A stretch of DNA of 64,000 nt. Origin: an uncultured Planctomycetota bacterium (lineage in GTDB: Bacteria; Planctomycetota; Planctomycetia; Isosphaerales; Isosphaeraceae). The notes under the pieces were generated by a model that had not been told where the DNA came from, ran no database searches, and saw only the letters and a list, made by a program, of their open reading frames with translations. The translations under genes were made by a program, and so were the position numbers. How positions within the stretch are numbered: the stretch's first letter is position 1; each line of letters begins with the position of its first letter. Location: positions 224,001 through 288,000 of the forward strand of contig CAWJTV010000001.1 in the NCBI GenBank assembly GCA_963845755.1. Direction: 5' to 3'. Shown piece by piece: positions 2,141 to 64,000 of the stretch.

Positions 2141-2271
2141 ATCGCCTCGTCTGCACCCATCGACGAGGCCATCCCCGCTGTGGAAGCCCATCAACCACTC
2201 GAGCGCTAAGGCGACCGGCGGATCAAAGTCCAACAAAGAATCGATCGGTTCCCGACCGAGACGATCCGCCC

Positions 2272-2495: not shown

Positions 2496-2604
2496 CAATC
2501 CGGCACCCCCGATTGCCCTTCGACAGGGGCCGACGACATCCAGACCCGGGGTCACTGAATTCCTGCCGACCGCCTAATGCGGCGTTCGGCCGCAACCCAA
2601 TCGG

Positions 2605-2683
2605 GATTCCCGATTCGAGATTCCCGATTCCCGAGGGGAATGATCCGGGAATCCGGAATCTCGAATCCGGAATTCGGAATCCC
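2605..2683. repeat. Inverted heptamer tandem repeats, (GATTCCC)n facing (GGAATCC)n
   Basis: GATTCCC GATTCGA GATTCCC GATTCCC followed by about 5 reverse-complement units. Confidence 0.8.
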
Positions 2684-2825
2684 CAGAGGCGCGCACGGCG
2701 CAGGGATCCTACCGAGGAAGACTCTACGTTTTTTCGGGACTGCGCCGGAACAAATGGCCCCTGCGGGGCAGTTGAATAAAAGTCAACCATCGACAACAAA
2801 TTATCGATGCGCGGCCCATCAGGGC

Positions 2826-4550: not shown

Positions 4551-4667
4551 GACAGCTCTTCCCTCAAGGTAGGCGCCGTGCCGGGCGCGGAATACGGAGA
4601 AGCCGGGAACCGCCCGACCACGTCGCGTGTTTGGCTGCATGTCGCCACCCTCCGGGGAGCGTCGATT

Positions 4668-5223
4668 CTATTCGGGAAGGTGCCACGACGATGCCGGCTC
4701 GAAGACCTCCACGTGATCGGACGCCTGGCGAGCGAGCAAGTTCCGGGCGCGATCGATGACCTCCGCGACGCCCCGAACCACGACGATGAACTTGCCGCCC
4801 TCGATCTGCGTCTCGTACTTGAGGGCGCGGTCCTTCGGGATGCCCCAGCCGACCAGCGCGCACCGCCAGGCTACCCAGTGCCGTCCCGGCGATCGCGCCT
4901 TCCATCCCCGCCAGCAGGGCCGCCGCCAGTGGGCCGGCGACGATCACCGGCCCCACTCCGGGTATGAGCATGACCCCCGCGCCAACCAGCAAGCCGAATA
5001 GGCCCCCGAACAACGCGCCGGTCGCCGCTCCGGCCTTGGCGTAGTCGGCGAGACTGACGAAGCCGACCGGCTCTTCTTTGACCTGAAAGTCACGGCCGAT
5101 GATCGAGAGATCGCCCTTGGCGAACCCCGCCTCGTGAAGCTGCTGGATCGCCTTCTCGGCCGCGGCGTGATCGGGATAGACCGCCACGATGCTCGAGCCG
5201 ACCGGAGCATCTATGTGACTCAT
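4668..5223 (-). CDS. General-stress/YflT-like glycine-zipper membrane protein (frameshift near 4858)
   Basis: IVAVYPDHAAAEKAIQQLHEAGF...GAATGALFGGLFG...GPLAAAL; the corrected frame continues GALVGWGIPKDRALKYETQIEGGKF to TAG at 4668. Confidence 0.75.
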
Positions 5224-5410
5224 GCTGCCTGCCTCCGGTGAGGATATCACGGTGACCTGGGACGCCCCTATTCCATCATTCATCAGGGATACCGGAAAGT
5301 CCAGCCAATCGTGCGACCGACCCCGACGCCACACTCCCGGCGCCGCCCTCGTGCCGAGCGGATCGGTGACACGGTGCGCCTTCGCCGGAGCACGACGGCC
5401 TGCCGGACCA

Positions 5411-6958: not shown

Positions 6959-7121
6959 CAAGGATCTCCAGGTAAGGGGGCGAGGCCGACCGGCGACCGC
7001 CCCTGAGGTCTTTCCGAGTTCAAGGTCCAAGACGGATCTCCACACAAAGGGACGGTGCATAAGGAACTCCGCATGCATGAAGTACGGGTGCAGCGTCACG
7101 AAAGTTCGGCGGTTTTCCGGA

Positions 7122-10100: not shown

Positions 10101-10472
10101 CAAGGTCCCCTTGGGCATCCACGACATCGCCCGGTCGGACATCGCCACCACCTGGGCCATCGCCTGGCCCATGTCGGTCCCCGGGAAGAACGACAGCTCG
10201 GTCAAGGCCACCTGCTGGATATTCCGCGTGTTGATATCTTGAATGCCGTCCACGTACTGGAAATACAGCTCGAGCTGATTGACGATGAACCCCTCCATCT
10301 GGTCGGGGCTCATGCCGATGTAATCGAGGAAGACGTAGATCTTCGGCACGTTCAGCGGCGGGAAGATGTCCACCCGCATCCGGGTGTAGGCCAGCGCGCC
10401 GCCGCTGATCAGGGCCACGACCAACATCAGGGTCGTGATCGGGCGCCGCATGGCGATGACGGTCGGATTCAT
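7122..10472 (-). CDS. RND efflux permease (CusA/CzcA/AcrB family), full length, split by three +1 frameshifts (~10000, ~8189, ~7948)
   Basis: Four consecutive ORF pieces join into one ~1115 aa RND protein with GILVDEATV (TM4), RLRPILMT and PLGLAVIGGL motifs. Confidence 0.9.
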
Positions 10473-10988
10473 GGATGGGACTCCCTACCGATGCGTGACA
10501 AGTCGGGCATCGAGACCTCGAGTGTAAGATCCGTTATCATCACAAGTGGTTCCGCATGTGACGAGTCTTTACGTTATCTCGGAATTCCATTGATAGGAAG
10601 TGTGGGGGTAAAATCGGTCATCGTGTGCGAGGTCTGTTCCGGCGACGTGCAGGTCTTTCCGGCTCGGGGTGGCCGATCGTGCCGTCGGCTATTGGGTGGA
10701 GAGAAGGAGAGCGTGGGACCCGTCGTTTTCGGACGAATCGATCGATCCATTCCTCGTCGCGAACCTCCTGGGCCCGCATCGGCCCGGCGAGAATCCTGCG
10801 AGAACGACCGCCGTTTGTGCCCGTAACAGCGACTCTCATCGCGGGGCATCCGAGCCCTTGCCCGTGGCAGCCGGGGTTCGTCCGTCGTGGCGACCGAGCC
10901 CTCGCTCGCGACATCAAGGCACGGCGACAGTTCGATCCGACACGCCATTCACACGGATCGCAATCCGCGCGCCACGGCGGAGGCCGAC

Positions 10989-11348
10989 TCAACAACGGAG
11001 CGGGTGGAACACCTGATCGAGGGTGGGGGTGGCAAGGATCCACGCCGGCCGGAAGGCGACGTCGGAGGGAGGGTCGAAATCGCACCAGCCGGGTCGGGTC
11101 GTCCCCTCCTGGTCCTCTTCGCCCTCGACGAGAAGGGCCTTGACCAGAATCGGTTGTGAAGCGGCCAGTGTCGCCGAGATGCCCGGCGAAGTCGTCCTGG
11201 GAATGGGATGGTTGTCGCGGTGGAACCCGAGGTAGGTCATGAGTCGAGCCGGCCTTGGCGGCCGGATTGGCGAGTTCATCACTCCCGCCAGCAGCGCCAG
11301 CACGGACGCGATCCGAATACCGTGGGTCAGGACGCTTCGGTTGGCCAT
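10989..11348 (-). CDS. Small protein with N-terminal hydrophobic helix, SPIR motif and C-terminal PLRC
   Basis: MANRS...SVLALLAGVMNSPIRP...VFHPLRC*; shares layout with 12536-12886 and 28410-28766. Confidence 0.6.
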   Translation of the reverse strand: MANRSVLTHGIRIASVLALLAGVMNSPIRPPRPARLMTYLGFHRDNHPIPRTTSPGISATLAASQPILVKALLVEGEEDQEGTTRPGWCDFDPPSDVAFRPAWILATPTLDQVFHPLRC

Positions 11349-11384
11349 CACCCTATGAATCCGTGCCTATGTTAAGAAACCAAA

Positions 11385-11969
11385 TTAATTAGTAGTTTGG
11401 AGGAGAATCGTTGTCAAGCCCTGCCGCCGAAGCTTCTCGAACGAGCTGGGCCGGTATCTCCTCATGGGGACCAGCAAATTCGCCTCGCGGAGGTAGCGGC
11501 GGACCTGGGACGCTGAGATCGAAGGAACGATCCCTCGTTTGACGACTTCGGCGGCCAGACCATGGGCCGACCAGAGAGTGGTCTTCACGCCGGAATCCTC
11601 CGCGGATTCGCGTGCCACGGCCAGGATTCCCGCGATCTGTTCGCGTGTAAACTTGGGGCGAGCACCGCTGCGCGGCTTGTCAGTCAGGATCCGCTCGATA
11701 CTCTGCCTCAGATTGGCCTTCGCCTCGCTGCACTCGATGCCAACGAGGCGGTCCCACCCCCTGGCCCAGCGGCGGCGCCATCGCCCCACGAAGCGTTGCC
11801 CCAGGCCAACCTTCACCGCGATCTCGGTGTTCCGCCACCCATCGAACGCCAGGAGGATGATCGTGGCCCGTTGTCGCAAATGGTGAGACCCGCTGGCGGC
11901 GTCCCGGATCGCGAGGAGGACCTCGCATTGACGTTCGGTGAGGGTCACCTTAGCCGCCTTACCCGGCAT
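11385..11969 (-). CDS. IS630-family transposase N-terminal HTH region only (no DDE domain)
   Basis: Aligns by eye with the N-terminal ~160 aa of the 44262-45516 transposase (MPGKxAKVT...LRQRAxIIL...WRRRW...PSISxxQVxRYLREA), then diverges and stops. Confidence 0.8.
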   Translation of the reverse strand: MPGKAAKVTLTERQCEVLLAIRDAASGSHHLRQRATIILLAFDGWRNTEIAVKVGLGQRFVGRWRRRWARGWDRLVGIECSEAKANLRQSIERILTDKPRSGARPKFTREQIAGILAVARESAEDSGVKTTLWSAHGLAAEVVKRGIVPSISASQVRRYLREANLLVPMRRYRPSSFEKLRRQGLTTILLQTTN

Positions 11970-12535
11970 GGAAAAAAGCCTCCTGATGATTGGGGAGGGA
12001 GTGGAAGATCGTCAAGTCGAGCACGCTTTTCCGCCCCATGAGCCGTCAATTACGGTTTTTCGAACTCACACATCAGTGCATCGTCCGCATCCTGTTGCAA
12101 GAGTCAAATTAAACACGAATAATTAATTTTTAATCATGTGAGGCGTCACCGACGATGACTGCCGCGCACGATCTCGGCGTCGATCCTCAGTTCCAATCGA
12201 CGCCGGACCAATCGCGATCGACGATCGTCGGGCCGGAATCGATCTCGGGGGAATACCGATGCCGGAGGGACAGACCTTCACCCTCGGGCGAAGCTCCAGC
12301 CCGGAGCCCTTCTCGCCTCCCTAGGATTCGGCACCAAGGACAATGCCGTGATGGCCGGTTCCGCGGTCATTCTCCACCGGGGTACTGAAGGGGCGTTTTC
12401 TACGCCGTCCCAGCCCGACGGGCGGAAAGACCTGGCTCGGCGTGACGCACCTCGAAGAGGTGTCGGCCACAGGGTTTCGAGCCGCTGCGAAGCCGTGGCA
12501 TATTGCGAGCAAGGCGGAGAGGTCGCGCGGATCTC

Positions 12536-12886
12536 TCAACAACGCAGGGGCAGGTGTCTCGGCGATTCCTCTTGAAAGTTCGGATTCGCCGGGCGAGGGA
12601 GTTCGCGTCGAGAAGAAAAAGCGGGCCCTTTCGATCGGGGACGACGCGTCTCACGCCGAGGATTCCCGGTCGCCAGACGGATCATCAACTGATGGCGGGC
12701 CATCAGATCGCATTGGGTAATGGCCCGGACCCGCGAGACGGGGCAGGTGGCGAAATTCCTGCGGAGATAATTCGGGTGCGAGGTTCCCGTGACGGGTGAT
12801 CGGATGGGAGAAGTGAGGACCGACACCCAGAGGACCAGGGCCAAGGCGACGCGAGACCACAAGTCGATCTTCACGCTCGATCGCAT
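12536..12886 (-). CDS. Small protein with N-terminal hydrophobic helix, SPIR motif and C-terminal PLRC
   Basis: MRSS...VALALVLWVSVLTSPIRS...RHLPLRC*. Confidence 0.6.
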   Translation of the reverse strand: MRSSVKIDLWSRVALALVLWVSVLTSPIRSPVTGTSHPNYLRRNFATCPVSRVRAITQCDLMARHQLMIRLATGNPRRETRRPRSKGPAFSSRRELPRPANPNFQEESPRHLPLRC

Positions 12887-13204
12887 CGATAACCCCGGAT
12901 TTCAAAACGCAAAACCCCATTACTCCTCGTCAGAATACAGGAATCCGTCCGGATTGTCAAATCCCTATCCATCTCGGGCGAATGGGGGAATGGGGGAGAG
13001 GATGCCTACCGGGTGAAGACGCATGCGGGCAGGGGATGTCCCCCCGACTCCCGAATTCCCGCCTCGCCGCGTTGGAGGTGGCGATGCTTGACCGCCTTCC
13101 GCAGACGGGCCTAAGATGATCGGACGTTGAGCGAGTCGGGCCCGAGTTTTGCGAAGATTATGGTCGGGGTTGAGAGTGGATCGCGAGTTTGACGGGGCAT
13201 CTTC

Positions 13205-14658
13205 ATGCGCGTCGTGGTCGATTACCAGGATGATAGCCTGGAGTTCGAACTCTCCGGTGAGCAATGCGTCGCCTCCTGGAACGGCCCGAGCGGCCTGGAT
13301 TCATGCGAGGACGTTGCGGCCCTTTGCGCGGCGCTGGAGGACCCTCGGGATTATCCGCCGTTGCGTCAGATTCTGGTGCCGGGCGATCGGATCGTCGTGG
13401 CCATCGATCCCACGATTCCGCGGCCGGCGATGATTCTTGATGCCCTCGGTCAGGTCTTCGATCGGGCAGGGGTCGGGCCGGAGAGCCTGACGGTGCTCGC
13501 CCCTGCGGACGCCGCGGCGATCCGGGAAAACGCGTCGGTCGGGAACCACCGGCTCCAGGTCCATGACCCGGACGACCGGGCTCAACTGGCTTACCTGGCC
13601 AGCACGAAGCAGGGGCGGCGGGTCTACCTGGACCGACTCCTGACCGATGCCGACGTGGTCGTGCCGGTCGGCCGACTCGGGTTCGACGGGGATCTGGAGT
13701 ATCGCGGGCCCTGGAGCGTCGTATTCCCGGGGCTGAGCGCTCGGGAGACCATCCGAGCGTTCCGCCAGGATCGGCCCGACCCGGCCGGGGACCCGCCGCG
13801 CGGGGCCGATCAGCCGGGATTGAATGAATCCCTCGAGGTGAGCTGGCTGCTGGGGACGCAGTTCCATATCGGGTTGCTGCCCGGCGCCGACGGTCTGCTC
13901 GAGGTCGTCGCCGGGCGGGACACGACGGTCCGCGACCGGGGGATCGAGGCGCTGGAACGCCACTGGACCTTCCGGCGCCGTCGCGGGCCGAGCTGGTCGT
14001 TGCCGGCGTCGGCCGCCCGGGGATCCCCGCCACGCTGGAGGACCTGGCCGGCGGAGTGACGACCGCGGCCCGACTGGTCCAGCATGGAGGTAAGATCATC
14101 CTCCTGTCCCGAGCCTCGGGACCGATCGGGCCCGCGCTCCGCAGGCTGATGGACGTCGACGACCCCAAGTCGGCCGTGGCGGCCCTCCGCGGGCAAGAAG
14201 CGGCCGAGGACTACCCGATCGCCCGCCAACTGGCTCGAGCGATGGCCTGGGCCGATCTTTTCGTCCATAGCGCCCTCGATCCTCAGATCGTCGAAGACCT
14301 CTCCATGGTCGCCCTGGAGCGTCCCGAGCAAGCCCGGCGACTGGTCGCCGGGAGCCGCTCCGCCTCCTTCGTGGGTCGTGCTGAACTGACACGCGCCGAG
14401 GTTGAACTCGGGACCGAATTACTGATCAATTGCGGGTGTAATCGCACGCCTGCAAAGTTGACGAAGATGCCTGATCGAGGCATAATAATTCAAGGATTTA
14501 TGCCCGCCATAACGATTGCAAGCTCAGGGGCCTCTTGCAACACGCAAGTGGACCATGATCTGCAATCGTGCATGCCTCGGAAAAGCGTCCCGTGCCGGAT
14601 TCTCCCTCGTGCCCGTCGGGACACGATCGTCCTGCGCGGATCGCCCCGATCCGGCTAG
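13205..14658 (+). CDS. Lactate-racemase (LarA/DUF2088)-like domain protein; frameshift near 13975; true 3' end uncertain (may be ~14430)
   Basis: PPLRQILVPGDRIVVAID, VHDPDD..LAYLASTKQGRRVYLDR..DADVVVPVG resemble the LarA N-domain; adding one G at 13975 joins the two ORFs (TFRAPSRAELVVAGVG). Confidence 0.65.
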
Positions 14659-14836
14659 GGCATGCTCCGGCGATCCGATCGGCCAAACTTGATACCCGAC
14701 ATCGAGCAGCGCGGGAGGAAAAGCATGATCGTCACAGCCAGGTACCACGTAGTGGAGCGATTCGTGGCGTTGGCCCTGGCCCTGGGCCTGCCGGCACAAC
14801 AGGCCGTCATGAGTCCTCACGAGGAGGCAGGGGTCG

Positions 14837-16174
14837 GTGCGGCCGGGACGATCGGGCGGGGCACGATCCCCGAAGAGCGGCCCGGCCGCTCTGATCTCCG
14901 TGCGGTCCTCCCCCGCATCGGTGACTTATGACCGCGCGGCGCAGGTTGTGGCGCCGCCGGTCAACGTCACCGTGGCCCCATCCCGACCCGTCGCCCCGGT
15001 CGCTCCTGACGATCGCCCTCAAGTCCGGGCCGTGGGAGTCATCGCGAACGAACCGGCACTCGTGCGGAACGATCCCTACCGGCGGTATCATCGGGGTTGG
15101 CTGCATGGCTACTGGAACGCCCATCGTTCCAGCCCCCTCGCGGGGCGCCCTGCCGGCGATGGATCGGGATTCGCGCCCCGAGGAGAAGTCGTCCCGCGCC
15201 TGGTGTCGCGCCCGGGGATGGGACGGGGCTGGGGACTGGCCGCCTGGCTCATTGGTCCGATGGTCTACGACTGGGGATACTTCGACTTCACCAATCCCTT
15301 CAATGACGTTGCGGCTCCGGTCGATCCTGGCAGGCGGGATCCCTTTGATTATTCCCACCCGGTGAATGTCGTGGCCGAACCACCGGGCGAGGCGCTGTTC
15401 CACCAGGCTCTCGAACGCTTCCACGAGGCGCGCACGGCGTTTCGGCGGGAGGACTTTATCCAGGCCCTGAAACTCACCGACGCGACCTTGCGAATGGTGC
15501 CGAACGATCCGGCGTTGCACGAGTTTCGAGCCTTGAACCTGCTGGCGCTCCATCGCTACCGCGAGGCGGCCTCGGTCCTCCATGCTGTGATCGCCGTCGT
15601 ACCCGGCTGGGACTGGACGACCTTGACTAATCTCTACGATCACCCGGAAACCTACACGCGACAACTCCGGATCCTCGAGACCTTCGCCGAGGAGAATCCC
15701 CGTTCGGCTGCCGCGCGGTTCCTGCTCGCCTGCCAGTATTTCACCACCGGATACGACGATGCCGCGATCAGCCAACTGACGATCGTCCATGCCCTCCAGC
15801 CCAACAACCAACTGGTCGCTCGCTTGATCCAGGAATTCCGCCCTTCGAGACCGAACAATCCCCTGTACGCGGTTGCCGTGGCCGGGACGACAGGAGTGCT
15901 CGACGGAACCTGGACCTCCCATCCCCGAAACGACACGACCATCACCCTCACCTTCCAACCCCGCGGACGCCTGGTCTGCGAAGTCAACCGGCGGGGCCAG
16001 ATCCGCAAGTATGAAGGGGATTGCGTCTCCGACGAGGGTACCTTGACGCTCAGTCGGGAGCAGGGTGAATCCATGGTGGGCGACATCATCTGGAGCGGCG
16101 ATCACCAGTTCACCTTCAAGATCCTGGAAGGCCAGCCGGCCGACCCGGGACTTTCGTTCGCGAAATCCTCGTGA
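14837..16174 (+). CDS. TPR-containing planctomycete-type protein (the N-terminus may start at ATG 14725 through a frameshift)
   Basis: ARTAFRREDFIQAL...PNDPALHEFRAL...YREAASVLHAV..PGWDW helical repeats; GWLHGYW motif. Confidence 0.7.
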   Translation: MRPGRSGGARSPKSGPAALISVRSSPASVTYDRAAQVVAPPVNVTVAPSRPVAPVAPDDRPQVRAVGVIANEPALVRNDPYRRYHRGWLHGYWNAHRSSPLAGRPAGDGSGFAPRGEVVPRLVSRPGMGRGWGLAAWLIGPMVYDWGYFDFTNPFNDVAAPVDPGRRDPFDYSHPVNVVAEPPGEALFHQALERFHEARTAFRREDFIQALKLTDATLRMVPNDPALHEFRALNLLALHRYREAASVLHAVIAVVPGWDWTTLTNLYDHPETYTRQLRILETFAEENPRSAAARFLLACQYFTTGYDDAAISQLTIVHALQPNNQLVARLIQEFRPSRPNNPLYAVAVAGTTGVLDGTWTSHPRNDTTITLTFQPRGRLVCEVNRRGQIRKYEGDCVSDEGTLTLSREQGESMVGDIIWSGDHQFTFKILEGQPADPGLSFAKSS

Positions 16175-16332
16175 ACAGATGGTTGAGACCACAATCTCCG
16201 GCTAAACTGGGATGACGTTTCATTGCCTGCGATGCAGGCTGTCACGCAGACCCCGCAAGAACGGGGATTGGCCCCGTCGAGACACCGAACCCTCCCTGTC
16301 ATCGGGAGGTTTTTATTATTTGAAGCGAAATT

Positions 16333-17340
16333 ATGTTCGATTTCGTCCATGAAGATGCGAATCCTGTCGCTATCAGCCTGACCGACCGCTCGGACCGTTG
16401 CCGGATCGAGGTAACGGGGCCGGACCGGGCCAAGTTCCTGCACAACCTGACCACGAATGACGTCAAGCGGCTGGCGGGGGGACGAGGCTGCGAGGCGTTC
16501 GTCACCAGTCCGCAGGGCAAGACCATTGGCTACGTGATCATCCTGGCCTCCGAAGACCGGATCATCGTGCGTTCCGACCCCGGTGGCATGGTGCTGGCTT
16601 TGCCCCATTTTCACAAGTACGGGCTCTTCGACGATGTCGCGATCGTCAACCGGACGAGTGAGACGTTCGAGCTCCTCCTCGTCGGCGCCGGGGCGGACCT
16701 GCTGGTCCGTCGCGCCGGCGGTCCAGTGCCCGAACTCACGGAATATGCGCATGTCCCGGCCGAAGTGGGTGGGTGCGCCGTTCGGGTGATTCGCGAATCG
16801 CCGGCCGGATTTCCGGGCCTGACGTTGATCGGCGATCGTCCGGACGGCGCCAGAGTCGTCGAGGCCCTCGGGGCCGTCGGTCAACCTGGAGAATTGACCG
16901 AACTCGACCCCTCGGCATTCGAGTCGCTGAGGATCAAGGCTGGAACTCCGGTCTTCGGCAAGGACATCACCGAGAAGAACCTCCCGCAGGAGATCGGCCG
17001 GGACGCGCGGGCGATCAGTTTCGTCAAGGGATGCTACCTGGGCCAGGAGACCGTCGCGCGGATCGATGCGCTGGGGCACGTCAATCAGGTCCTCAAGGGG
17101 CTCGCGTTCGAGCCGGGAGCGACCTGTCCGGTTCCCGGTTCCGCCCTGGAATCCGAGGGGAAGTGCGTGGGCGCGATCACCTCGGCCGCGCCTTCGCCGG
17201 GCCGAGGACACCCGGTGGCCCTGGGCCTGATCCGGACCAGCCATGCGCGGGCCGGGACTCCCCTGCGGGTCGAGATCGCCCCGGACCTCGAACCGGTCGT
17301 CGCGACTGTCAGCGATCTCCCCTTCCCGAGTCTCGATTGA
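16333..17340 (+). CDS. ygfZ: Folate-binding Fe-S repair protein YgfZ/GcvT family
   Basis: Signature KGCYLGQETVAR; GPDRAKFLHNLTTND. Confidence 0.9.
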   Translation: MFDFVHEDANPVAISLTDRSDRCRIEVTGPDRAKFLHNLTTNDVKRLAGGRGCEAFVTSPQGKTIGYVIILASEDRIIVRSDPGGMVLALPHFHKYGLFDDVAIVNRTSETFELLLVGAGADLLVRRAGGPVPELTEYAHVPAEVGGCAVRVIRESPAGFPGLTLIGDRPDGARVVEALGAVGQPGELTELDPSAFESLRIKAGTPVFGKDITEKNLPQEIGRDARAISFVKGCYLGQETVARIDALGHVNQVLKGLAFEPGATCPVPGSALESEGKCVGAITSAAPSPGRGHPVALGLIRTSHARAGTPLRVEIAPDLEPVVATVSDLPFPSLD

Positions 17341-17421
17341 TACGACGCCTGTTCCGGTTATCCCGGCCGGATCACCAATCTTTTGCCGCGGTCCGCGGTG
17401 CACCGAGGTATCATCCCAGGC

Positions 17422-19871
17422 ATGCGCCATCCCCGCTACGTCTGCATCCACGGTCACTTCTATCAGCCTCCGCGCGAGAATCCCTGGCTGAACGTGGTGG
17501 AGGTCGAGGACTCGGCCGCACCATTCCACGATTGGAATGAGCGGATCACGCGCGAATGTTACGCCCCGAATACCCGATCGCGGCTCCTCGACGGCCAGGG
17601 CCGGATCACCCATCTGTTGAACAACTACGCCTGGATCAGCTTCAATTTCGGCCCGACGCTCCTCCAGTGGATGGCCGAGGCGGCCCCAGAGGCTTATCAG
17701 GGGATCATCGAGGCCGACCGACTGAGCCGGGAACGGCGGAGTGGTCACGGCAATGCCCTGGCACAAAATTTCAATCATACGATCATGCCGTTGGCCAGCC
17801 GTCACGACAAGGAGACGCAGGTGGTCTGGGGGATCGCCGACTTCCGCCGGCGATTCGAGCGCAATCCCGAAGGGATGTGGCTGGCGGAGACGGCCGTGGA
17901 CGTCGAAACCCTCGAGGTACTGGCCGAGGCGGGGATCCGGTTCACGATCCTGGCACCTCGGCAGGCCAAGCGGTGGCGGAAGTTGGGCACGAAGACCTGG
18001 GAGGCGATCCCCGACGGGATCGACCCGTCGCGCGCCTATCTCTGCCGCCTCACCTCCGGGCGATCGATCGTGCTGTTCTTCTACGACGCCATTGTTTCGC
18101 GCTACGTCGCGTTCGAGCGGCTGCTGGACAGCGGCGAGCGGTTCCTCGATCGGCTGTTCCAGGGATTCGACGACGACCGCGAGCACGCCCAGTTGATGCA
18201 CATCGCGACCGATGGCGAATCGTACGGGCATCATCATCCGCATGGGGACATGGCCCTGGCTTACGCGCTGGATCGCCTGGCCCGGCACCCCGACGTTCGC
18301 CTGACCAACTACGGCGAATTCCTGGAGCTGCATCCCCCGGAGTGGGAGGTGGAGATCCACGAGAACAGCTCCTGGAGCTGCGCCATGGCGTCGAGCGCTG
18401 GCGTTCCGACTGCGGATGCCGGTTCCGCGGCGACTGGCGGCAGGCCTGGCGGGAGCCGCTCCGCCGCGCGCTCGACGGCCTCAAGACGCAGCTCGATCAC
18501 CTCTTCGGAACCCGCGGCCGCGAGTGTTTTCCCAACCCCTGGGTCGTGCGCAATGCCTACATCCAGGTCATCCTCGACTTCGACCGCGACCGCGACGCGA
18601 CGATCTCCGCATTCCTCTCGGAGCATGGCCATCCCGACCTGGACGCCGTCCAGGTTACCGACGCCTTGCGCCTGCTCGAGATGCAGCAGGACGCGATGCT
18701 GATGTTCACGTCGTGTGGCTGGTTCCACGACGAGCTCAGCGGGATCGAGACGGTCCAGTGCCTGCAATATGCCGCCAGGGCGATCCATCTGGCCAAGCGG
18801 TTCCACCGCGACTTCGAGCCCGAGTTCGTCGCGGCGCTCCAGGAGGCGCCGAGCAACGTGGCGAAGTATCGGGATGGGCGTGGAGTCTGGGAACAGCTCG
18901 TCCGGCCGAGCGTCGTCGATCTCGACCGCGTGCTGGCGCACCATGCCATCAGCCTCGTCTACGGACTTCACGGCGAGGAGCGGAGGCAGCGCGTGTATTC
19001 CTTCGACCTCGAGACGATCGAGCACGAGGTCCGCAGGCGCGGCCCGGGTCACCTGGCCATCGGCCGCCTGCGCGTCCGATCCCGACGGACCTGGAACCAG
19101 GCCGAAGCCCGGTTCGTGGTCCTCCACTTCGGCGGCCTGGATTTCCATGCCCTGCTCAGCCAGGGGACCGAGGCCGACGCCTCCGACGCCTTCGAGGCGT
19201 TCCAGGTGGAATTGCTCGAGACCTACCGGTCCGGCTCGATGGCCGACGTCACCACCCTGGTGAGCCGGCAATTCCCCGGCCGCGCACACCGCCTCGACGA
19301 CCTCTTTCGCGACGAGCAGCGCCGGATCATCGGCATCATCCTGGAAGATCGGTTTGCGGACTATCAACGGTCGTTCGAACGGCTCGCCAACCAGGACGAG
19401 GAGATGCTCAATCGGCTCGGGCAGTTGAGTTACCCGTTCCCCAAGCCCCTCCACGCCACGGCCTCGGCCCATCTCGACGCGTGTCTTCACGAGGAGATCG
19501 CCCGACTGGTCCGGGGCGAGGTCGTCTCTCTCGATGCCATCGAACGGCTCTGCGAGCGCGGGCGAGCCTGGGGATATCAGCCCGAACGCGAGCTCCTCGA
19601 GAAGACGCTGTCCGAGTCGCTGCTCCGGACCCTCGAGGAGCTTCACCCCAGCGCCGATCTCGCCGGCATCACCAGCCGCGCCGAACAGCTCCTCGGCGCC
19701 GCCGGCCTCCTGGGACTCGAGCCAGACTTCTGGCAAATCCAGAACCGGCTCCTCAATGCGTTCGCCCGACTCACGGAATCCCGGGTGATGGATGCGCCGC
19801 TCCAGGCAGCCTTCTCCAAGCTCGCCGACGGCCTGAAAGTCAACCAGGACCTCCTGGGCTGGCGGCCGTGA
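17422..19871 (+). CDS. Glycoside hydrolase family 57 / DUF3536 protein (frameshift near 18383)
   Basis: HGHFYQPPRENPW, GMWLAETAVD, ATDGESYGHH; the restored SWSCAHGVERW joins the two ORFs; MFTSCGWFHDE. Confidence 0.9.
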
Positions 19872-59284: not shown

Positions 59285-59395
59285 TAGATTTACGTGTACA
59301 GGAGGCATCCTCTCGATCGCCGCGGCATCCCTTCCCGACCAACGACCTCCCAGGTAATATGGAGGAGTGGGACGGTGAGAAAGGAGAGAGGGGCC

Positions 59396-59701
59396 GTGGA
59401 AGTTTCTGTCATCATCGAGCCGATTACCGGCAGCGGGTATCGCGCGACCGGGGCCGGCGGGCTCTCGGTCGGCCTGACCGCTGACGGAGCGACGGCCGCA
59501 GAAGCCATCGACCGACTGGCCGACCAGGTCCGGCTCCGCGTGAACGCCGGGGCCAGATTGGCCGAGTTGAACGTCGCTGGCGGCATCGCACCCTGGAAGC
59601 AGGATGCCGGATACTTGCACGACGATCCCCTCTATGAACCCTGGCGCGCCGCGATGGAGGAATACCGTCATCAACTCGACGAAGACCCCGAGGCGCTATG
59701 A
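59396..59701 (+). CDS. Putative antitoxin (HicB-like N-terminus)
   Basis: VSVIIEP..GYRA..LTADGATAAEAI..; overlaps the PIN start (ATGA). Confidence 0.7.
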   Translation: MEVSVIIEPITGSGYRATGAGGLSVGLTADGATAAEAIDRLADQVRLRVNAGARLAELNVAGGIAPWKQDAGYLHDDPLYEPWRAAMEEYRHQLDEDPEAL

Positions 59702-60117
59702 GCCTCTTCGTCCTCGATACCGACCACCTGACTCTCTATTACCACGGCGACCCGATCGTCGTTCAGAGGGTCAACTCGAGGCTACACACGGAGTTGGCGA
59801 TCTCGGTCTTGACGGTCGATGAGCAACTCACGGGTTGGTACACGCTGATGCGGCAAGCCCGCCGTCCGGAAGAAGTCGCACGGGCCTACGTGCATCTCGG
59901 CGAAGCCGTCGTGCGTCTGGGCCGCTGGCGCATCCTGCCCTACACGGAAGCGGCCATCGCGCGGGTCGCTCAGCTCAAGGCCCTCCGGTTGAACGTTCGG
60001 CTCATGGACCTGCGGATCGCCGCCGTTGCGATGGAGAATCAAGCTGTGGTCGTCACCCGCAACCGACGCGACTTCGGCCGTGTTCCCGGCCTGAGCGTCG
60101 AGGATTGGTCGGTTTGA
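59698..60117 (+). CDS. vapC: PIN-domain VapC toxin
   Basis: FVLDTDHL, TVDEQL, MDLRIAAVA, VVTRNRRDF..VPGL.VEDW. Confidence 0.92.
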   Translation: MSLFVLDTDHLTLYYHGDPIVVQRVNSRLHTELAISVLTVDEQLTGWYTLMRQARRPEEVARAYVHLGEAVVRLGRWRILPYTEAAIARVAQLKALRLNVRLMDLRIAAVAMENQAVVVTRNRRDFGRVPGLSVEDWSV

Positions 60118-60359
60118 GCCCCCCGTCCGGGGATTCCGGCGGGGCCCGCCACGGGCCGCCGTCGCTTCAGGCGGAGTCCCAGCCCGCCGACGCAAACCAT
60201 CGCGGGCCAGGTCGGGTGTCGCTGCCGAATCTCTCGGAGAGGCCACGCCGAGGAACGGCCAGCCGGTCCGACGCCACCGAAGGCCATTGAGTCGCGGTGA
60301 ATTCGGTCGATCCGACCGAAGCTCGCAAGGCGACCGTCCGACGGTTCGGTCGATCCGAA

Positions 60360-60433
60360 TATGTGAGCCAATCCGCTCGGGGTGAGCTGGTCATGGGGGC
60401 CGCGCTGGACCCCTACGTGCTCCACTCCGAGCG
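60360..60433 (+). repeat. Duplicated internal fragment of soxB (copy of 54977-55050)
   Basis: 74 bp, 2 mismatches. Confidence 0.92.
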
Positions 60434-60571
60434 GGGCGTGAAAAGGGGACGGGGGCGTGAAAAGACAGCCATGTGGGAATTGGCGTGATGCCGATTTGGG
60501 ACCTATGTACGGACGATCCCTGTCCCCGCCGAACCGGCGGGTTTTACAGATGTCGTTTGATGGCCAATCCC

Positions 60572-60739
60572 GACCAGGGGCCACCTCGGTCTCGTCAGGG
60601 ATCACGTCTCGCCATACTGGTTTATCAGGGGAGTGACCCCACACAGCCTTATCCGACGTTGGTGATCCGAGACAGAGCGCCACGCTTTTCCACGGCTTTG
60701 CGCCTTGGGGACAGATTCGACGTTGTTCGGCCCCTGGTC
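60572..60739 (-). ncRNA. Predicted bridge/seek RNA of the IS110 element
   Basis: 11 bp perfect closing stem (60572-82/60729-39); two internal loops, each with a small hairpin flanked by segments matching the target (60707-15, 60685-90) or the donor junction (60643-48, 60617-21). Confidence 0.8.
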
Positions 60740-60746
60740 CGGATGG

Positions 60747-62321
60747 TCACTCTGTGGGATCAGCCTCCCCTGACTCCGGTGATCTTACCAGGTTCCCCTC
60801 CAGTTTGGCCAAGATGGCGGGGAGAATCGTGTCTAGCTGGCGCGGTCCCGTTCCCCGCGATTTCGGGACCCGAGCCAGCTCCTCCGCCACAGCGGCCGCT
60901 TCCTCACGATGCGCCGTGTGCGGGAGTTGGGCCACTGCGGCGTCGAGGTTTCGCGAGAGCTGATCAGGTGGAATGATATGCTCAAGAGAAAACCTGATCA
61001 GTTTATCGAGGATGGGATCCCGCTGCTGAGCGCAGGGGTGTTGGAAGGTCATCCGACCGGCTACCATCTGGTAGGCGATCCGGCAGAACCGACCGGCGAC
61101 CTGGACACGGACGCTACGGGCGTCCTTGCCCCTGAGCCGCCATCCCGCGGCCAGGACCGCGAAGTGATCATTGCATTTGATCAAGTTATCTGCAATCGTG
61201 AGGATGGCGGATCGCAGGTCGCGATTGGCGTGTCGGACCAGCGCGCCGTCGCGACGATCGACCTGGTCGCTCTGGTACCGCGAGGGGAACAACCCGGCGC
61301 GGCCCGTAATCGCTCGGGCCTTGGTGTAGCGCTCGATCGGCCCCATCTCGCCGGCGAACTCGGCGGCCGAGACCACGTTGATCCCGACGATGCCCAGCAG
61401 GAGCAGGTAGGGCGTCCCGGCCAAGAGCCCGGCCAGGTCACCCTCGACCGCCTGGATGGCTTGAGCCTTGGCGACCTGGTCGGCGTCGAGCTCCAGGAAG
61501 ATGCGGTGATGGAGCGACGCCGGTTCCTCGGCCGACGGTGCCGACCGGGCCCAAGCGACGATCTTTTCCAGGGTGGACCGATACACTCGGAGGCCGGCCT
61601 GTCGAACCTGTTGGCTCAAGCCGGCCAGGCCGATCTGGGCGATCGCCGCGGCCGAGCCGAGGTCCCTGGCCACCCAGAGGATGGCCGGAGAACCGAAGAG
61701 ATCGCCGACGCACTTCGAGTATCCTGGCATGAACGATTGAAGATGCTCGAGCATCTGCTGTTGGAGGACGACTCGCTTTTGCACCGAGGTGCGGCGGTGC
61801 CTGGCCAGCAGTTGGAGTCGGGCATAGACCGGGTCGGGTTCGGGCTCCAGCAGGCCGAAGCCGTTGACGGCGGCGCGGTGGATGGCGGAGAGGTCGGTGT
61901 CGTCGGTCTTGTTGCCGGGGTCGGCGGGGAGTCGATACTGCTTGGTGGTGTAAGGATGAACGATGCGGACCTCGAACCCCGCCTTGCGGAAGCTGCGCTG
62001 GACCGGGCCGTGATAGCGACCGGTGCGCTCGACGACCACGATCACCTCCCGGATGCCGTGCCGGGCCATGGCCGCGCGAACCGACGTCACGGCGGTCTCG
62101 AAGTCGGATCGGTTGTGTTCGACGGTGGTCGGCTCGAGCAGGACTCGGCCGTAGAAGTCGGCGAACATCATCCGGGAGCGTGCCTTGGCGCAATCGACGC
62201 ACACCAAGCCGAAGTGCTCCGGTCCGACCGCTTGGACGCGCGGGTGAATGACCCCCCGAGGCTTATGAAGGGCATGCGGCTGCGACGGGCGACGGTTCTT
62301 CGACGGGGACTTGGTAGCCAT
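60747..62321 (-). CDS. IS110-family DEDD recombinase/transposase, 524 aa
   Basis: VCVDCAK (D), VERTGRY (E), NKTDDTD (DD); Tnp20-type GIVGINVVSAAEFAGE..GRAGLFPSRYQS; GGAGG RBS. Confidence 0.93.
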   Translation of the reverse strand: MATKSPSKNRRPSQPHALHKPRGVIHPRVQAVGPEHFGLVCVDCAKARSRMMFADFYGRVLLEPTTVEHNRSDFETAVTSVRAAMARHGIREVIVVVERTGRYHGPVQRSFRKAGFEVRIVHPYTTKQYRLPADPGNKTDDTDLSAIHRAAVNGFGLLEPEPDPVYARLQLLARHRRTSVQKRVVLQQQMLEHLQSFMPGYSKCVGDLFGSPAILWVARDLGSAAAIAQIGLAGLSQQVRQAGLRVYRSTLEKIVAWARSAPSAEEPASLHHRIFLELDADQVAKAQAIQAVEGDLAGLLAGTPYLLLLGIVGINVVSAAEFAGEMGPIERYTKARAITGRAGLFPSRYQSDQVDRRDGALVRHANRDLRSAILTIADNLIKCNDHFAVLAAGWRLRGKDARSVRVQVAGRFCRIAYQMVAGRMTFQHPCAQQRDPILDKLIRFSLEHIIPPDQLSRNLDAAVAQLPHTAHREEAAAVAEELARVPKSRGTGPRQLDTILPAILAKLEGNLVRSPESGEADPTE

Positions 62322-62470
62322 GGAACAGGACCTCCGAATCGAGTTGAGAAGAGACCCAACTCCCATTCTGGAAGTCTGATCGGGCGTTCAGTAGAAAAGA
62401 TCCTTGACCCCCCCAGGCCCCCCTGTTGTTGCTGGTCAAGAATCTTTAGTACCTCACTTCGCCACATACC

Positions 62471-62514
62471 AGGGGACGGAACGAATTATTGACGTCCATT
62501 CCGTCCCCTTTTCA
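62471..62514. repeat. REP-like palindrome interrupted by the IS110 (left part at 60433-60464)
   Basis: Reconstructed TGAAAAGGGGACGGAA pairs perfectly with TTCCGTCCCCTTTTCA (62499-62514); an extra arm copy at 60436-60452. Confidence 0.8.
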
Positions 62515-62706
62515 TCTGCTCCGTTCTGTCAACTTTTCCTCTGCATCCCCTTATCCTTTGCCTTGGCTGAGAAGACCGACCAGAACCAGCACCAGGACGG
62601 CGCGGTCGATGGCCGCATCCGCAAGGACTGACTACTCACGGGACAGCCGCAAGAGTAGAATCATGTCGGGGTTGTACCTGCTCATCGAGGAGCGTCCGCC
62701 TGCAGC

Positions 62707-63180
62707 ATGGATATCGTCGGCAAGAGGGGAGAGGCGCTCTTCGGCGCGATCATCACCCGGTGGTGCGGGGGACAGCAGTGGTTCGATCGGCGCTTCCTGG
62801 GCGAGAAGGCCGAAGCGCTCGATTTCGAGGTGACGCTCCTCGGATCGTCCGTCTTTCAGTCGAATTTCTTCGTACAGGTGAAGGCGACGGCGAAGGCTAA
62901 GCGGTATGCGGGCACAGGAATGGGTCGTAAACTGCTCGTCCGGCTGACGGCCGCCGATGCCAAAAAGCTCGGCAGCATGAAAGTGCCGGCGTATGTCGTC
63001 GGAATCGACGTGCTCTCCGGGGTCGCATATATCCAGCACGTCCCGGCGGGAGCCAGGAAGGGGTTCGTGGGAATCTCTACCCGCCGCTCACTGAACTGCC
63101 GGGCCATCAGGAGGATTTGGAATGACGTCGAAGACTTCTGGAAGTCGCGGCCAGTAGGCATGACGAAGTCCAGCCTTTGA
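62707..63180 (+). CDS. DUF4365-like PD-(D/E)XK nuclease-fold protein
   Basis: GKRGEALF, LDFEVTL, FFVQVKAT pattern. Confidence 0.7.
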   Translation: MDIVGKRGEALFGAIITRWCGGQQWFDRRFLGEKAEALDFEVTLLGSSVFQSNFFVQVKATAKAKRYAGTGMGRKLLVRLTAADAKKLGSMKVPAYVVGIDVLSGVAYIQHVPAGARKGFVGISTRRSLNCRAIRRIWNDVEDFWKSRPVGMTKSSL

Positions 63181-63189
63181 GGAGGGCAC

Positions 63190-63714
63190 ATGTCTCCAGC
63201 AAACCAGATGGTGGGTCACCGCTCAGAACTCCTCGCCAGGGTTGCCCTGACGCGGCGATTGAACGTCAACGTGTTCAACATGGATATGGGCGGCGAGATG
63301 GGAATCGACTTGCTCTGCTCGATCCGCGACCCGACCCTCCCCGGATTCCTCCCGTTCGGCGTGCTCGTATGGGGCACGTCTAACCCCCTGGACACGTCGG
63401 AGGATTTGGCGAAGCACGTCCGCGGCCGCAGGAAGAAGCTCGACAAGCGGACACGATACTTCATCCCGGTCATCGTCTTGCTGTTTTCCATGCACAACGA
63501 CAGGGAGTTCTACGCCTGGCTCGTCGAGCCATCTGAAGACTCGACCCATCTTGTGGATGTGGCCGATCTGGATTTCAAGCCGTTTGATACCAGGCAACTA
63601 GACAGGGTCATTCGGCGCATCACGAATTGGTATAAGTTCCTTGCCGCAGACATCCGGCCTGAGACCACGGAAATCAATTCGTCTCGGTTTCCGAATGACG
63701 AGCGGGATGACTGA
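63190..63714 (+). CDS. DUF4365-like protein lacking the QxK motif
   Basis: GHRSELLA, GIDLLCSI, FGVLVWGT, IPVIVLLFSM..EFYAWL; 9 bp after the preceding gene with GGAGG RBS. Confidence 0.6.
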   Translation: MSPANQMVGHRSELLARVALTRRLNVNVFNMDMGGEMGIDLLCSIRDPTLPGFLPFGVLVWGTSNPLDTSEDLAKHVRGRRKKLDKRTRYFIPVIVLLFSMHNDREFYAWLVEPSEDSTHLVDVADLDFKPFDTRQLDRVIRRITNWYKFLAADIRPETTEINSSRFPNDERDD

Positions 63715-64000
63715 TACAGTCCCCATGTGATCGAGGTTCCCTGCCCCTTCACGCGCAAGGTCAGGTATTGCTTGCTTCGGTCCGACGACACCGAAGTCGA
63801 TCGACCTGAGGTGGCTTCGATCGATCCGGTCGAAGCCGGTTAAACCCGGCGACGGCATCACCTCCGAGGAATGCGGGTTTGGGGTCCGCGACGCGGCTCA
63901 GTTCGGCCCCGCCTTGGTCCCGGTCCTGGGTGAGGATTCTGGGCGAGGCAGAACCTCGGCTTGGCCGGACCACTCCTGCCTTCGGGCGGGACGTGACAGG

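Follow-up and report, generated by a model that had tools for sequence, protein, structure and literature searches.

The element, its target site and its recombinase

The window (the whole stretch of DNA analysed, 64,000 nt from an uncultured Planctomycetota bacterium) carries an IS110-family element of 2,010 bp on the minus strand (60463-62472), made up of a short left non-coding end, a recombinase gene and a longer 3' non-coding end. On the minus strand the left junction reads TTCCGTCCC, CT (62472-62471), GGTATGTGG and the right junction CATGGCTGT, CT (60464-60463), TTTCACG; since CT is the sole sequence common to both, the boundary ambiguity is exactly 2 nt. An intact IS110 element with a duplicated CT core had been predicted from the letters alone and was confirmed, and the target and donor junction proposed with it hold in the sequence at the junctions, in a neighbouring uninterrupted copy of the target and in an empty unit on contig C12. 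Features of the element and its flanks, all on the minus strand, were as follows.

62499..62513, minus strand: inverted target copy GAAAAGGGGACGGAA, forming a palindrome with 62473-62487; the insertion is at the palindrome's 3' foot
62473..62481, minus strand: left target flank (LT) TTCCGTCCC, from sequence (GTCCC or CTCCC in other copies)
62471..62472, minus strand: core CT, left junction (sole dinucleotide common to both junctions; one CT in empty sites)
62322..62470, minus strand: left non-coding end, 149 nt, with right-donor GGT (62468-62470), left subterminal repeat ATGTGGCGAAGTG (62455-62467) and a conserved palindrome (62396-62447) also present in loci L012, L017 and L072
60747..62321, minus strand: recombinase gene, 524 aa and stop (Pfam, profile alignment to IS621, fold match)
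62193-5, 62028-30, 61902-4, 61893-5 and 61269-71, minus strand: codons of recombinase residues D43, E98, D140, D143 and S351, invariant in 12 homologues
60465..60482, minus strand: right end, with subterminal repeat CAATTCCCACAT (60471-60482) and left-donor GGCTGT (60465-60470)
60463..60464, minus strand: core CT, right junction
60456..60462, minus strand: right target flank (RT) TTTCACG, from sequence
60433..60451, minus strand: neighbouring uninterrupted target copy CGTCCCCTTTTCACGCCCC, from sequence

The core is an IS110-type dinucleotide without longer duplication: CT stands at both junctions in 4/4 genome copies, and a single CT in empty sites. Related loci with both ends located also have CT at both junctions, where the search patterns themselves demanded CT at each end. 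The rejoined target is present uninterrupted as CGTCCCCTTTTCACGCCCC directly beside the element (60433-60451). The element inserts at short motifs that lie at the 3' foot of palindromic repeats present in low copy number. The target 11-mer has 12 occurrences in the 14.3 Mb genome, and the repeats are REP-like rather than a classical abundant REP family. The donor bases are flanked by CAT...ATG, invariant in loci with ends. The subterminal inverted repeat ATGTGG/CCACAT is perfect over 6 bp and reaches ~12 bp if a gap and a mismatch are allowed. In two lineages both halves change together (ATGTAG/CTACAT), and in others the repeat is imperfect.

Four full copies, 99-100% identical and in different flanks, were found in the 14.3 Mb genome. 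On contig C12 two filled repeat units are succeeded by an empty one, GGGATGTCCCCTTTTCCC. Three copies in unrelated flanks encode identical 524-aa proteins, and in one copy (C12b) the gene has indels close to its 5' end. Decayed relics lie at C29, C18, C34b and C47. Three of these hold the RNA without the recombinase: C29 and C18 are 5'-truncated relics of whole elements, and C34b has a divergent RNA and a degenerate right end without a recombinase gene upstream. They were considered as autonomous mini-elements and rejected as such, being truncated (C29, C18) or a diverged relic (C34b); because the left end was seen in none of the three, a separate RNA module is not evident. Many relatives in other genomes are multicopy at 99% or above (e.g., 7 copies in Singulisphaera sp. 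GP187).

The N-terminal RuvC-like domain of the recombinase matched PF01548 (DEDD_Tnp_IS110; E 6.9e-20, 71.8 bits, cut-off 29) and the C-terminal Tnp domain matched PF02371 (Transposase_20; E 1e-10). In a profile alignment to IS621 (8.8e-11), allowing for a 2-residue offset in chain numbering, E98, D140, D143 and S351 aligned to IS621 E60, D102, D105 and S241; D43 is the putative fourth DEDD residue, assigned by position and invariance only. The AF2 model (pLDDT 74.9) was searched with Foldseek, and ranks 1-10 were all IS621 or ISCro4 chains (E ~5e-10 to 6e-9; TM 0.63-0.66 on target), which supports the predicted placing of the protein among IS110 bridge recombinases. S351 is followed by D rather than the usual G, and because S351-D352 is unchanged in all 12 homologues compared, the most distant at 65% identity, the S-D catalytic loop is a family trait and not a lesion. 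The protein fell below the cut-off of NCBIfam NF033542 for IS110 transposases (118.9 bits, E 2.7e-34, vs 140), which marks it as a divergent subfamily. Among plasmid-borne proteins, its nearest relatives are 'IS110 family transposases' of actinobacteria (24-31% identity).

The RNA fold of the 3' non-coding end

The non-coding end is 282 nt at the 3' side and 149 nt at the 5' side of the gene, and the RNA-model match lies in the former. The fold spans 60572-60739 (168 nt) and is closed by GACCAGGGGCC/GGCCCCUGGUC in 11 perfect pairs, as predicted (~170 nt, perfect 11 bp stem). The four guide segments, namely the left and right target guides (LTG, RTG) and the left and right donor guides (LDG, RDG), run LTG-RTG-LDG-RDG from 5' to 3' on the minus strand; sequence and fold agree with the original prediction in their placing and order.

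60562..60746, minus strand: candidate bridge RNA gene, covariance-model match (model R1, 180 bits; fold; pair counts; metatranscriptome contigs)
60729-60739 with 60572-60582, minus strand: closing stem P1 (fold)
60707..60715, minus strand: LTG UCUGUCCCC, on the 5' side of the target internal loop; covaries with left flanks across families
60694..60704, minus strand: hairpin GGC-GCAAA-GCC, caps the target-binding loop (100% of cells paired in 42 sequences; both-side changes at 2/3 pairs)
60685..60691, minus strand: RTG GGAAAAG, reverse complement of CTTTTCC; covaries with right flanks
60641..60648, minus strand: LDG GGCUGUGU, same sense as the right end GGCTGT-CT, with GGCUGU at 60643-60648; bases 4-5 vary with the end
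60628..60640, minus strand: hairpin GGGG-UCACU-CCCC, caps the donor-binding loop (99.4% of cells paired)
60617..60622, minus strand: RDG AACCAG, reverse complement of CTGGTT, with ACCAG at 60617-60621; 5/6 to the left end CTGGTA
60525..60541, minus strand: G+C-rich conserved hairpin ~30 nt downstream of the fold; stems changed in aligned relatives

LTG matches TCCGTCCC plus the core C at 8/9 positions in the same sense as LT, the odd position being a U opposite a bottom-strand G. RTG matches its target over 6 nt in the window copy and over 7 nt in the three other copies. GGCTGT occurs at two places in the 3' end, LDG being a literal repeat of the right end. When the first 190 nt of the 3' end were shuffled by mononucleotide, 0/200,000 shuffles held the four guide words in order, a figure that overstates the case because the words were picked after the fact; covariation, rather than shuffle chance, is the real test of the guides.

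The minimum free energy of the fold was -81.5 kcal/mol against -67.5 +/- 4.7 for shuffles (z = -3.0). The nested structure tested across relatives was written by hand from the single-sequence fold. Over 42 model-aligned sequences, 87.1% of cells paired, against 41-49% with the partner slid, and 27/42 pairs had changes on both sides; the covariation score was 0.234 vs 0.102 in shuffles (0/500). In an unfitted MAFFT alignment 82.1% of cells paired, against 42-53%. Both arms of the fold have the same basal sequence, ACGYCK...UGRCG. An RNAalifold consensus on the MAFFT alignment was discarded as garbled, the two arms having been cross-paired because of this shared base. A scan of 59500-64000 against Rfam (E <= 1) returned 0 matches.

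Contigs from soil metatranscriptomes were identical to 60595-60759 (X1 and X2, probably one data set) and to 60623-60700 (X4). As RNA-library contigs may contain DNA and give neither strand nor ends, they are a weak hint of expression of the bridge RNA; element parts without contig cover in X1, X2 and X4 are not readable as absence of transcript. A further set, X3, consisted mostly of relatives at 88-95% likeness. Scans of 60380-62560 gave no sigma-70-like promoter and no intrinsic terminator on the RNA strand (the single terminator-like site is within the gene, on the opposite strand), and the hairpin at 60525..60541 was not scored as a terminator. Inspection of the circle junction by eye only revealed no convincing hybrid promoter.

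Variation of guides and DNA among relatives

Covariation of guides and targets among homologues, a check named beforehand, was carried out on 53 parsed related loci with 25 guide sets and was positive for all four guides: each segment changes along with the DNA it should read. In LDG, GGC-NN equals the right end in six variants (TG, AG, GG, GC, AC, CG), the exceptions being one mutated copy (L021) and the degenerate L072. RDG is UUUCAG where the left end is CTGAAA (L021-23); L019 also has UUUCAG, and its left end was not found. The target guides follow at least eight different targets, one of them wholly different (14 nt). Examples, with the core between hyphens, were the following.

Target TTCCT-CT-TCTCT: LTG UUCCUCU; RTG reverse complement CTTCTCT
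Target CACTG-CT-TGGCC: LTG CACUGCU; RTG reverse complement CTTAGCC, one U-G pair
Target GTCGC-CT-TTCGCT: LTG UGUCGCC; RTG reverse complement CTTTCGCT
Target GATGTCAC-CT-TTTCA: LTG GAUGUCACC; RTG reverse complement CTTTTCA
Target CTGACCC-CT-TTCC: LTG CUGACCCC; RTG reverse complement CTTTCC
Target GCGTGT-CT: LTG CGUGUCU
Target CT-TTGTCA: RTG reverse complement CTTTGTCA

Matches were counted at each readable site. LDG (6 nt) matched at 6/6 in 27 and 5/6 in 25 of 52 sites, and RDG (6 nt; 50 sites) at 6/6 in 31, 5/6 in 18 and 4/6 in 1. With wobble allowed, RTG (7 nt; 51 sites) matched at 7/7 in 15, 6/7 in 10, 5/7 in 21 and 4/7 in 5, and LTG (9 nt; 49 sites) at 7/9 or better in 34. DNA was then permuted among guide types for 20,000 rounds, ignoring the kinship of families. 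Read with that limit, observed matches exceeded the permuted value for LTG (6.49 vs 4.96, 0/20,000), RTG (5.88 vs 5.06, 0/20,000), LDG (6.52 vs 5.59, 0/20,000) and RDG (5.89 vs 5.53, 570/20,000), the RDG test being weak because only ~3 of its bases are programmable and they vary in one lineage. Four cross-controls, each guide against the wrong DNA, gave no such excess (1,403 to 19,330 of 20,000 reached the observed value).

LTG matched at 6/9 or fewer in 15/49 left flanks, of which about six are one-base slips in a C run; notable among the non-matching left flanks were those of L009, L010, L011, L014 and L068. In L033, which lies outside the 53 parsed loci and was read by eye, the left flank matched LTG at ~2/7. 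The L041 family has poor RTG matches beyond CTTT. The guides are short stretches, and several of their mismatches are U-G-compatible. In most families LTG pairs with just one of the two CT bases, and so does LDG. IS621-like handshake guides were looked for after RDG across families, and no consistent rule emerged: the base that follows RDG finds a pairing partner in the base to the left of the target core in L021/L019, L015, L065 and L056 (three of these cases would pair with the cognate donor too), whereas in the majority of loci it is a U opposite C and does not pair.

Interpretation and comparison with known systems

On the comparative evidence, the element is very probably a functional IS110-family insertion sequence that was active recently and is mobilised by recombination under the guidance of a bridge RNA. 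The 3' non-coding end would be transcribed, or cut from the recombinase mRNA, to give a Y-shaped RNA of ~170-185 nt. The internal loop of one arm would read the target, and the loop of the other the joined element ends, LDG pairing with GGCTGT and RDG with CT-GGT. By analogy with IS621, the recombinase (RuvC-like DEDD domain, coiled coil, Tnp domain with Ser351) would bind each arm as a dimer, synapse the donor circle with the target and exchange strands at the CT core via a phosphoserine intermediate; insertion would leave CT on both sides. The programmable RNA-guided recombinase of the original prediction is thus borne out as far as guides vary with DNA in nature, programmability being seen in natural variation only. 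The right-end, multibranched RNA fold is likewise present, and its implied novelty falls away because such RNAs are already published for IS1111-type elements in the passages cited of Durrant 2024 and Siddiquee 2024.

Two other accounts were weighed. The matches might be DNA-level features, such as protein-binding sites or alternative ends, kept by gene conversion, with the fold incidental; LDG does literally repeat the right end, GGCTGT stands twice in the 3' end, the arms share a base as repeated protein-binding sites might, and the transcript with its ends is a predicted one. Against this, RTG and RDG are reverse complements and LTG and LDG same-sense, exactly as in the IS621 scheme in the passages cited, a pattern not predicted by such a repeat model. 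The segments always lie in loops of a fold with compensatory changes at 27/42 pairs, mismatches are in several cases U-G-compatible, and the protein is akin in fold and sequence to solved bridge-RNA recombinases. This is the least probable of the readings, and a very unlikely one. The element might instead be a bridge-RNA insertion sequence by descent that is now immobile here, its RNA unmade or its recombinase inactive, with the copies reflecting past activity or duplication of flanking repeats. Only 4 full copies in 14.3 Mb, beside the relics C29, C18, C34b and C47, the gene indels in one copy and an S-D loop in place of the S-G conserved elsewhere (in the passages cited) would fit. Set against this are three copies with identical proteins in unrelated flanks, catalytic residues that are all intact, the invariance of S351-D352 in 12 homologues and the many multicopy relatives, such as that of Singulisphaera sp. 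GP187; immobility is considered very unlikely.

In the element, IS110-type guide order is combined with an RNA at the 3' end, a recombinase of unusual length and a catalytic loop that reads S-D. A wider reading, put forward tentatively and at a little under an even chance, is that these belong to a distinct planctomycete-wide architectural class of bridge recombinase. Its members may combine a recombinase of ~524 aa, in which the catalytic loop reads S-D and the C-terminus carries a helical extension, with a Y-shaped bridge RNA that is encoded on the 3' side, closed by a stem and arranged in IS110 guide order, and with two arms that have the same basal helix (ACGYCK/UGRCG) and change in parallel. 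The parallel arms suggest arm duplication and reading by equivalent recombinase dimers. If the class is real, the relatives already provide eight or more natural target loops, each programmed differently, and one of these has a fully different 14-nt target.

Bridge recombinases are in development as programmable DNA-insertion tools, for which well-annotated orthologues from nature, with their guides known, offer a useful starting point. In this family one can read RNA, target, donor and core directly, and the loops have been reprogrammed many times in nature; as comparative evidence this strongly confirms the bridge-RNA rule beyond Proteobacteria and Firmicutes. The combination of IS110 and IS1111 features, the length of the recombinase and the duplicated arm bases are relevant to how, in evolution, the RNA came to move from one element end to the other. 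For genome annotation, the element accounts for a family of repeats and for several orphan RNA relics of a large planctomycete genome. Planctomycetes went unmentioned among the listed matches in the IS110 transposase and bridge-RNA literature; the supplements of Durrant 2024 and Siddiquee 2024, which give predicted bridge RNAs and trees of insertion sequences, may include the family.

The element is a well-supported addition to the bridge-RNA mechanism already described in 2024 (passages cited of Durrant 2024 and Siddiquee 2024), and not a new mechanism. It shares with IS621 and ISCro4 (structures 8wt6-9, 9t56) a DEDD RuvC-like domain, a coiled coil and a Tnp domain with catalytic Ser, and with IS621 the CT core, the targeting of palindromic repeats, an RNA with two internal-loop arms (target loop, then donor loop) and, in each loop, a same-sense left guide followed on its 3' side by a right guide that is a reverse complement. 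As in the IS110 group, the donor bases are flanked by a short inverted triplet that does not vary, CAT...ATG here vs ATA...TAT in the cited passage of Durrant 2024. Unlike IS621, in which the RNA lies in the left end, it has the RNA in the 3' (right) end, with the arms enclosed by an 11-bp closing stem and extra helices; its recombinase is 524 aa vs 326 aa (16% identity in the fold alignment), has a modelled helical C-terminal extension of ~100 aa and carries S-D rather than S-G in the catalytic loop, and handshake guides were not recognised.

With IS1111-family elements (ISEc11, ISPa11, ISKpn4), as far as the cited passages of Siddiquee 2024 and Durrant 2024 describe them, it has in common a long non-coding region downstream of the gene (282 vs 149 nt), subterminal inverted repeats with short terminal extensions, a branched RNA and site-specific insertion without longer duplication. 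It departs from them in guide order: in the IS1111 seekRNA the top-strand-complementary segment is 5' of the bottom-strand one (Siddiquee 2024, passage cited), whereas here LTG, which pairs with the bottom strand, is 5' of RTG, which pairs with the top strand, the IS110-type order. Its recombinase of 524 aa compares with IS1111 transposases of 330-350 aa, and its repeat, only 6 perfect bp (~12 bp with the gap), with subterminal inverted repeats of 7-17 bp, again as given in the cited passages. IS110-type guide order with a 3' non-coding region matches the exception group within IS110 that has a downstream non-coding region (Siddiquee 2024, section 6). In the same source the long IS110 subgroup spans 395-455 aa and the whole IS110 range 315-455 aa; the planctomycete protein exceeds both and falls below the NCBIfam cut-off. 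ISPpu9 of P. putida with its RNA Ssr9 is, in the passages cited, similarly an IS110-family element in palindromic repeats with an RNA gene downstream of the transposase and extra RNA-only copies elsewhere in the genome. Ssr9 is reported there to be dispensable for transposition and to be mobile as a module in its own right, unlike the planctomycete RNA, for which the three RNA-only copies are relics.

Element boundaries, copies and recombinase

The element occupied 2,010 bp of the minus strand (60463-62472, CT at both junctions counted in). Its left junction read TTCCGTCCC-CT-GGTATGTGG and its right junction CATGGCTGT-CT-TTTCACG, with CT as the only sequence common to both. The recombinase gene lay between non-coding ends of 149 nt (5') and 282 nt (3'), which carried an imperfect subterminal inverted repeat (ATGTGG(C)GAAGTG vs the reverse complement of CAATTCCCACAT); donor bases were directly flanked by an invariant CAT...ATG. 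The assembly (14.27 Mb, 49 contigs) was searched for copies, and four full copies were found at 99-100% identity: the one in the window (contig C1), one on C34 and two on C12.

62321-60747, minus strand: recombinase gene, 524 aa
G000:C12:184453-188540: tandem-repeat insertions L003 and L004, two copies in successive units of the short repeat GGGATGTCCCCTTTTCCCTTTCAA

An identical 524-aa protein was encoded by three of the four copies, and the fourth (C12b, the second on C12) carried indels close to the gene's 5' end. The third C12 repeat unit, GGGATGTCCCCTTTTCCC, was empty, which settled where the element begins and ends and that an uninterrupted site has a single CT. Next to the element in the window lay an uninterrupted target copy (60433-60451). 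An inverted copy at 62499-62513 places the insertion at the 3' foot of a palindrome. Across the genome the 11-mer GTCCCCTTTTC occurred 12 times, vs about 6 expected, with a palindromic context common to several occurrences.

The protein matched the Pfam families DEDD_Tnp_IS110 (E 6.9e-20) and Transposase_20 (E 1e-10); its score against the NCBIfam IS110 model was 118.9 bits, below the cut-off of 140. The Pfam matches, the absence of any shared junction sequence beyond CT and the empty C12 unit bear out the original prediction of an intact IS110 element bounded by a duplicated CT core. A profile of 12 homologues was compared with solved structures and matched the bridge recombinases IS621 (E 8.8e-11) and ISCro4 (E 3.8e-07). 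E98, D140, D143 and S351 aligned to IS621 E60, D102, D105 and S241 (allowing for the chain's 2-residue offset), and D43 was assigned by position; all five were invariant across the 12 sequences. The residue after S351 was an invariant D (codons S351-D352, window 61266-61271; 12/12 aligned homologues); S-G (or T-G) is the conserved loop reported for IS110 and IS1111 transposases and Piv in the description by Siddiquee 2024. The AlphaFold model (pLDDT 74.9) returned IS621/ISCro4 structures at ranks 1-10 (E about 5e-10 to 6e-9, TM 0.63-0.66 on target), followed by Nop5-type proteins and one TIGR-Tas protein, and had some 100 helical residues beyond the Tnp domain.

Partial copies were also present. 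Three bridge-RNA copies stood without a recombinase gene (L086-L088: C29:192355-192540, C18:17127-17308 and C34:350344-350527). Those on C29 and C18 were elements truncated at the 5' side, the C29 copy with a differing left target guide (CUGACCCC); the C34 copy (C34b) belonged to another lineage, its cap hairpin being compensatory (GAGG/CCUC) and its right end degenerate. C47:225140-225445 (L005) was a left-end-only fragment ending at an inverted target-like repeat. The left-end 5' UTR of the window element (62396-62447, minus) held an imperfect palindrome of ~14 bp per arm, AAAGATTCTTGACC...GGTCAAGGATCTTT, found also in L012, L017 and L072; it may act as an operator, form an mRNA structure or belong to a promoter region. 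Just outside the element, plus strand 59294-60117 contained a PIN-domain gene (59698-60117; PF01850, E 4.2e-06) that shared 4 nt with the end of a 135-aa ORF upstream, for which Pfam gave no match; the two are probably a VapBC-like toxin-antitoxin pair.

Fold and possible transcription of the 3'-end RNA

The reverse complement of 60560-60746 folded at -81.5 kcal/mol (z = -3.0 vs shuffles) into two arms inside the perfect 11-bp closing stem that had been predicted. In arm 1 a basal helix led to an internal loop, whose 5' side held UCUGUCCCC and whose 3' side held GGAAAAG, and the arm was capped by the hairpin GGC-GCAAA-GCC. Arm 2, atop two further helices, had a similar basal helix, an internal loop (GGCUGUGU / AACCAG) and the hairpin GGGG-UCACU-CCCC. 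The four guide segments lay where the original prediction had placed them, two per internal loop. No Rfam family resembled this RNA. With a hand-written nested structure and a plain MAFFT alignment (26 sequences), 82.1% of cells were paired vs 42-53% with slid partners. A covariance model built from this alignment was run against 49 sources: downstream of the gene, 41 matches were full-length RNAs, and L049 gave a partial one. In the model-fitted alignment, which is biased towards the model where the MAFFT figure is the unbiased, weaker one, 87.1% of cells were paired (41-49% slid), both sides had changed at 27/42 pairs, and the covariation score was 0.234 vs 0.102 +/- 0.006 in shuffles (0/500).

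The basal helices of the arms (60714-60722 with 60675-60682; 60649-60658 with 60606-60614) had the same sequence, ACGYCK...UGRCG, owing to which RNAalifold consensus alone mis-paired the arms. They tended to vary in parallel across families (e.g., both to U-A in L013 and L048). This points to a duplication origin of the arms or to a common protein-binding module. About 30 nt past the fold, a conserved G+C-rich hairpin (60525-60541, minus), its stem sequence varying among relatives, may mark the RNA 3' end or a processing site.

Small shares of the stretch were present in five soil RNA runs, four of which were aligned to it. The metatranscriptome data sets X1 and X2, of equal size and probably one data set, each gave one 165-nt contig identical to 60595-60759; in X4 the contigs included one of 78 nt identical to 60623-60700, with more close by. 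These contigs hint at bridge-RNA transcription but do not prove it: RNA libraries may contain DNA, and the contigs show neither strand nor ends. A scan of the element found no promoter or terminator consensus.

Guide covariation among relatives

Protein relatives numbered in the thousands (of 8,000 candidates that were scored, 3,530 had E <= 0.001); the best 120 had 65-91% identity and mostly 520-527 aa, and the best plasmid-borne ones 24-31% identity. For comparison, 74 loci (L-numbers) were taken from species-representative genomes at 40-83% identity, mostly Planctomycetota (Isosphaeraceae, Gemmataceae, Singulisphaera); a few were MAGs under other labels. Many were multicopy, which made their boundaries independent of any guide model. 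Ends were near-constant (CT-GGTATGT...CATGGCNNT-CT) and targets varied. Upstream of the gene in L059 (about 900-1200) and L050, the left end was partly duplicated in tandem (threefold in L059), each unit beginning after an internal GGGATGAGCC-CT resembling the target, a pattern suggestive of insertion of the element into its own left end.

Left and right target guides (LTG, RTG) and donor guides (LDG, RDG), as defined in the account of Durrant 2024, were parsed at 53 loci, giving 25 distinct guide sets, and further ones were read from the model alignment. Bases 4-5 of LDG (GGC-NN) were TG, AG, GG, GC, AC or CG, each time equal to the element's own right end except in L021 (one copy with a mutated end; sister copies match) and the degenerate L072. 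RDG (U/A)ACCAG went with left end CTGGTA, and UUUCAG occurred in the lineage with left end CTGAAA. Target guides tracked at least eight targets, a positive outcome for the guide/target covariation check proposed beforehand.

Targets tracked by the target guides
Own element: GTCCC-CT-TTTCC
L008, L013, L077: CTGACCC-CT-TTCC
L021-23 (L019: right flank only): TTCCT-CT-TCTCT
L058: GCGTGT-CT
L048: GATGTCAC-CT-TTTCA
L072: GTCGC-CT-TTCGCT, uninterrupted repeat units alongside
L033, L060: CT-TTGTCA
L065, L070: CACTG-CT-TGGCC, wholly different, in another palindromic repeat

In the L065/L070 lineage the host palindromic repeat was GCACTGCTTGGCCGC ... GCGGCCAAGCAGTG, and both target guides were rewritten to fit.

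LDG matched the DNA at 6/6 in 27/52 sites and 5/6 in 25/52; RDG at 6/6 in 31/50, 5/6 in 18/50 and 4/6 in 1/50. With wobble allowed, RTG matched at 7/7 in 15/51 sites, 6/7 in 10, 5/7 in 21 and 4/7 in 5, and LTG at 7/9 or better in 34/49. The remaining 15/49 LTG sites had at most 6/9 on the left flank, about six being one-base slips in a C run; LTG was mismatched in L009, L010, L011, L014 and L068, as was L033 (outside the parsed set) by eye. The right-flank match in the L041 family was limited to CTTT, and in most families LTG and LDG each paired with one core base only. Permuting DNA among guide types equalled the observed agreement in 0/20,000 cases for LTG, RTG and LDG and 570/20,000 for RDG, counts that ignore kinship and so are not true probabilities; four mismatched controls (the permutation of guide vs wrong DNA) gave no comparable excess.

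Comparison with known systems

The observation behind the original prediction is confirmed, and the sequences support the published bridge-RNA/seekRNA mechanism as the one the element would use. RNA guidance of the recombinase is supported, in that guides covary with targets and ends, but the element's right-end multi-loop RNA had a published precedent: Durrant 2024 describes IS1111-group bridge RNAs as lying in a long right end and frequently forming multi-loop structures. According to the description in Siddiquee 2024, transposases have 330-350 aa in IS1111 and 315-455 aa in IS110, a non-coding region lies downstream in IS1111 and some IS110 members, and the two target-matching segments are in reversed order between the families. 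By these published descriptions, the element resembles the IS1111 type in having a downstream RNA and subterminal repeats and the IS110 type in its guide order, and its 524-aa recombinase exceeds both length ranges. The element is a new, well-documented member of a divergent subfamily that extends across the planctomycetes and has a mixed architecture.
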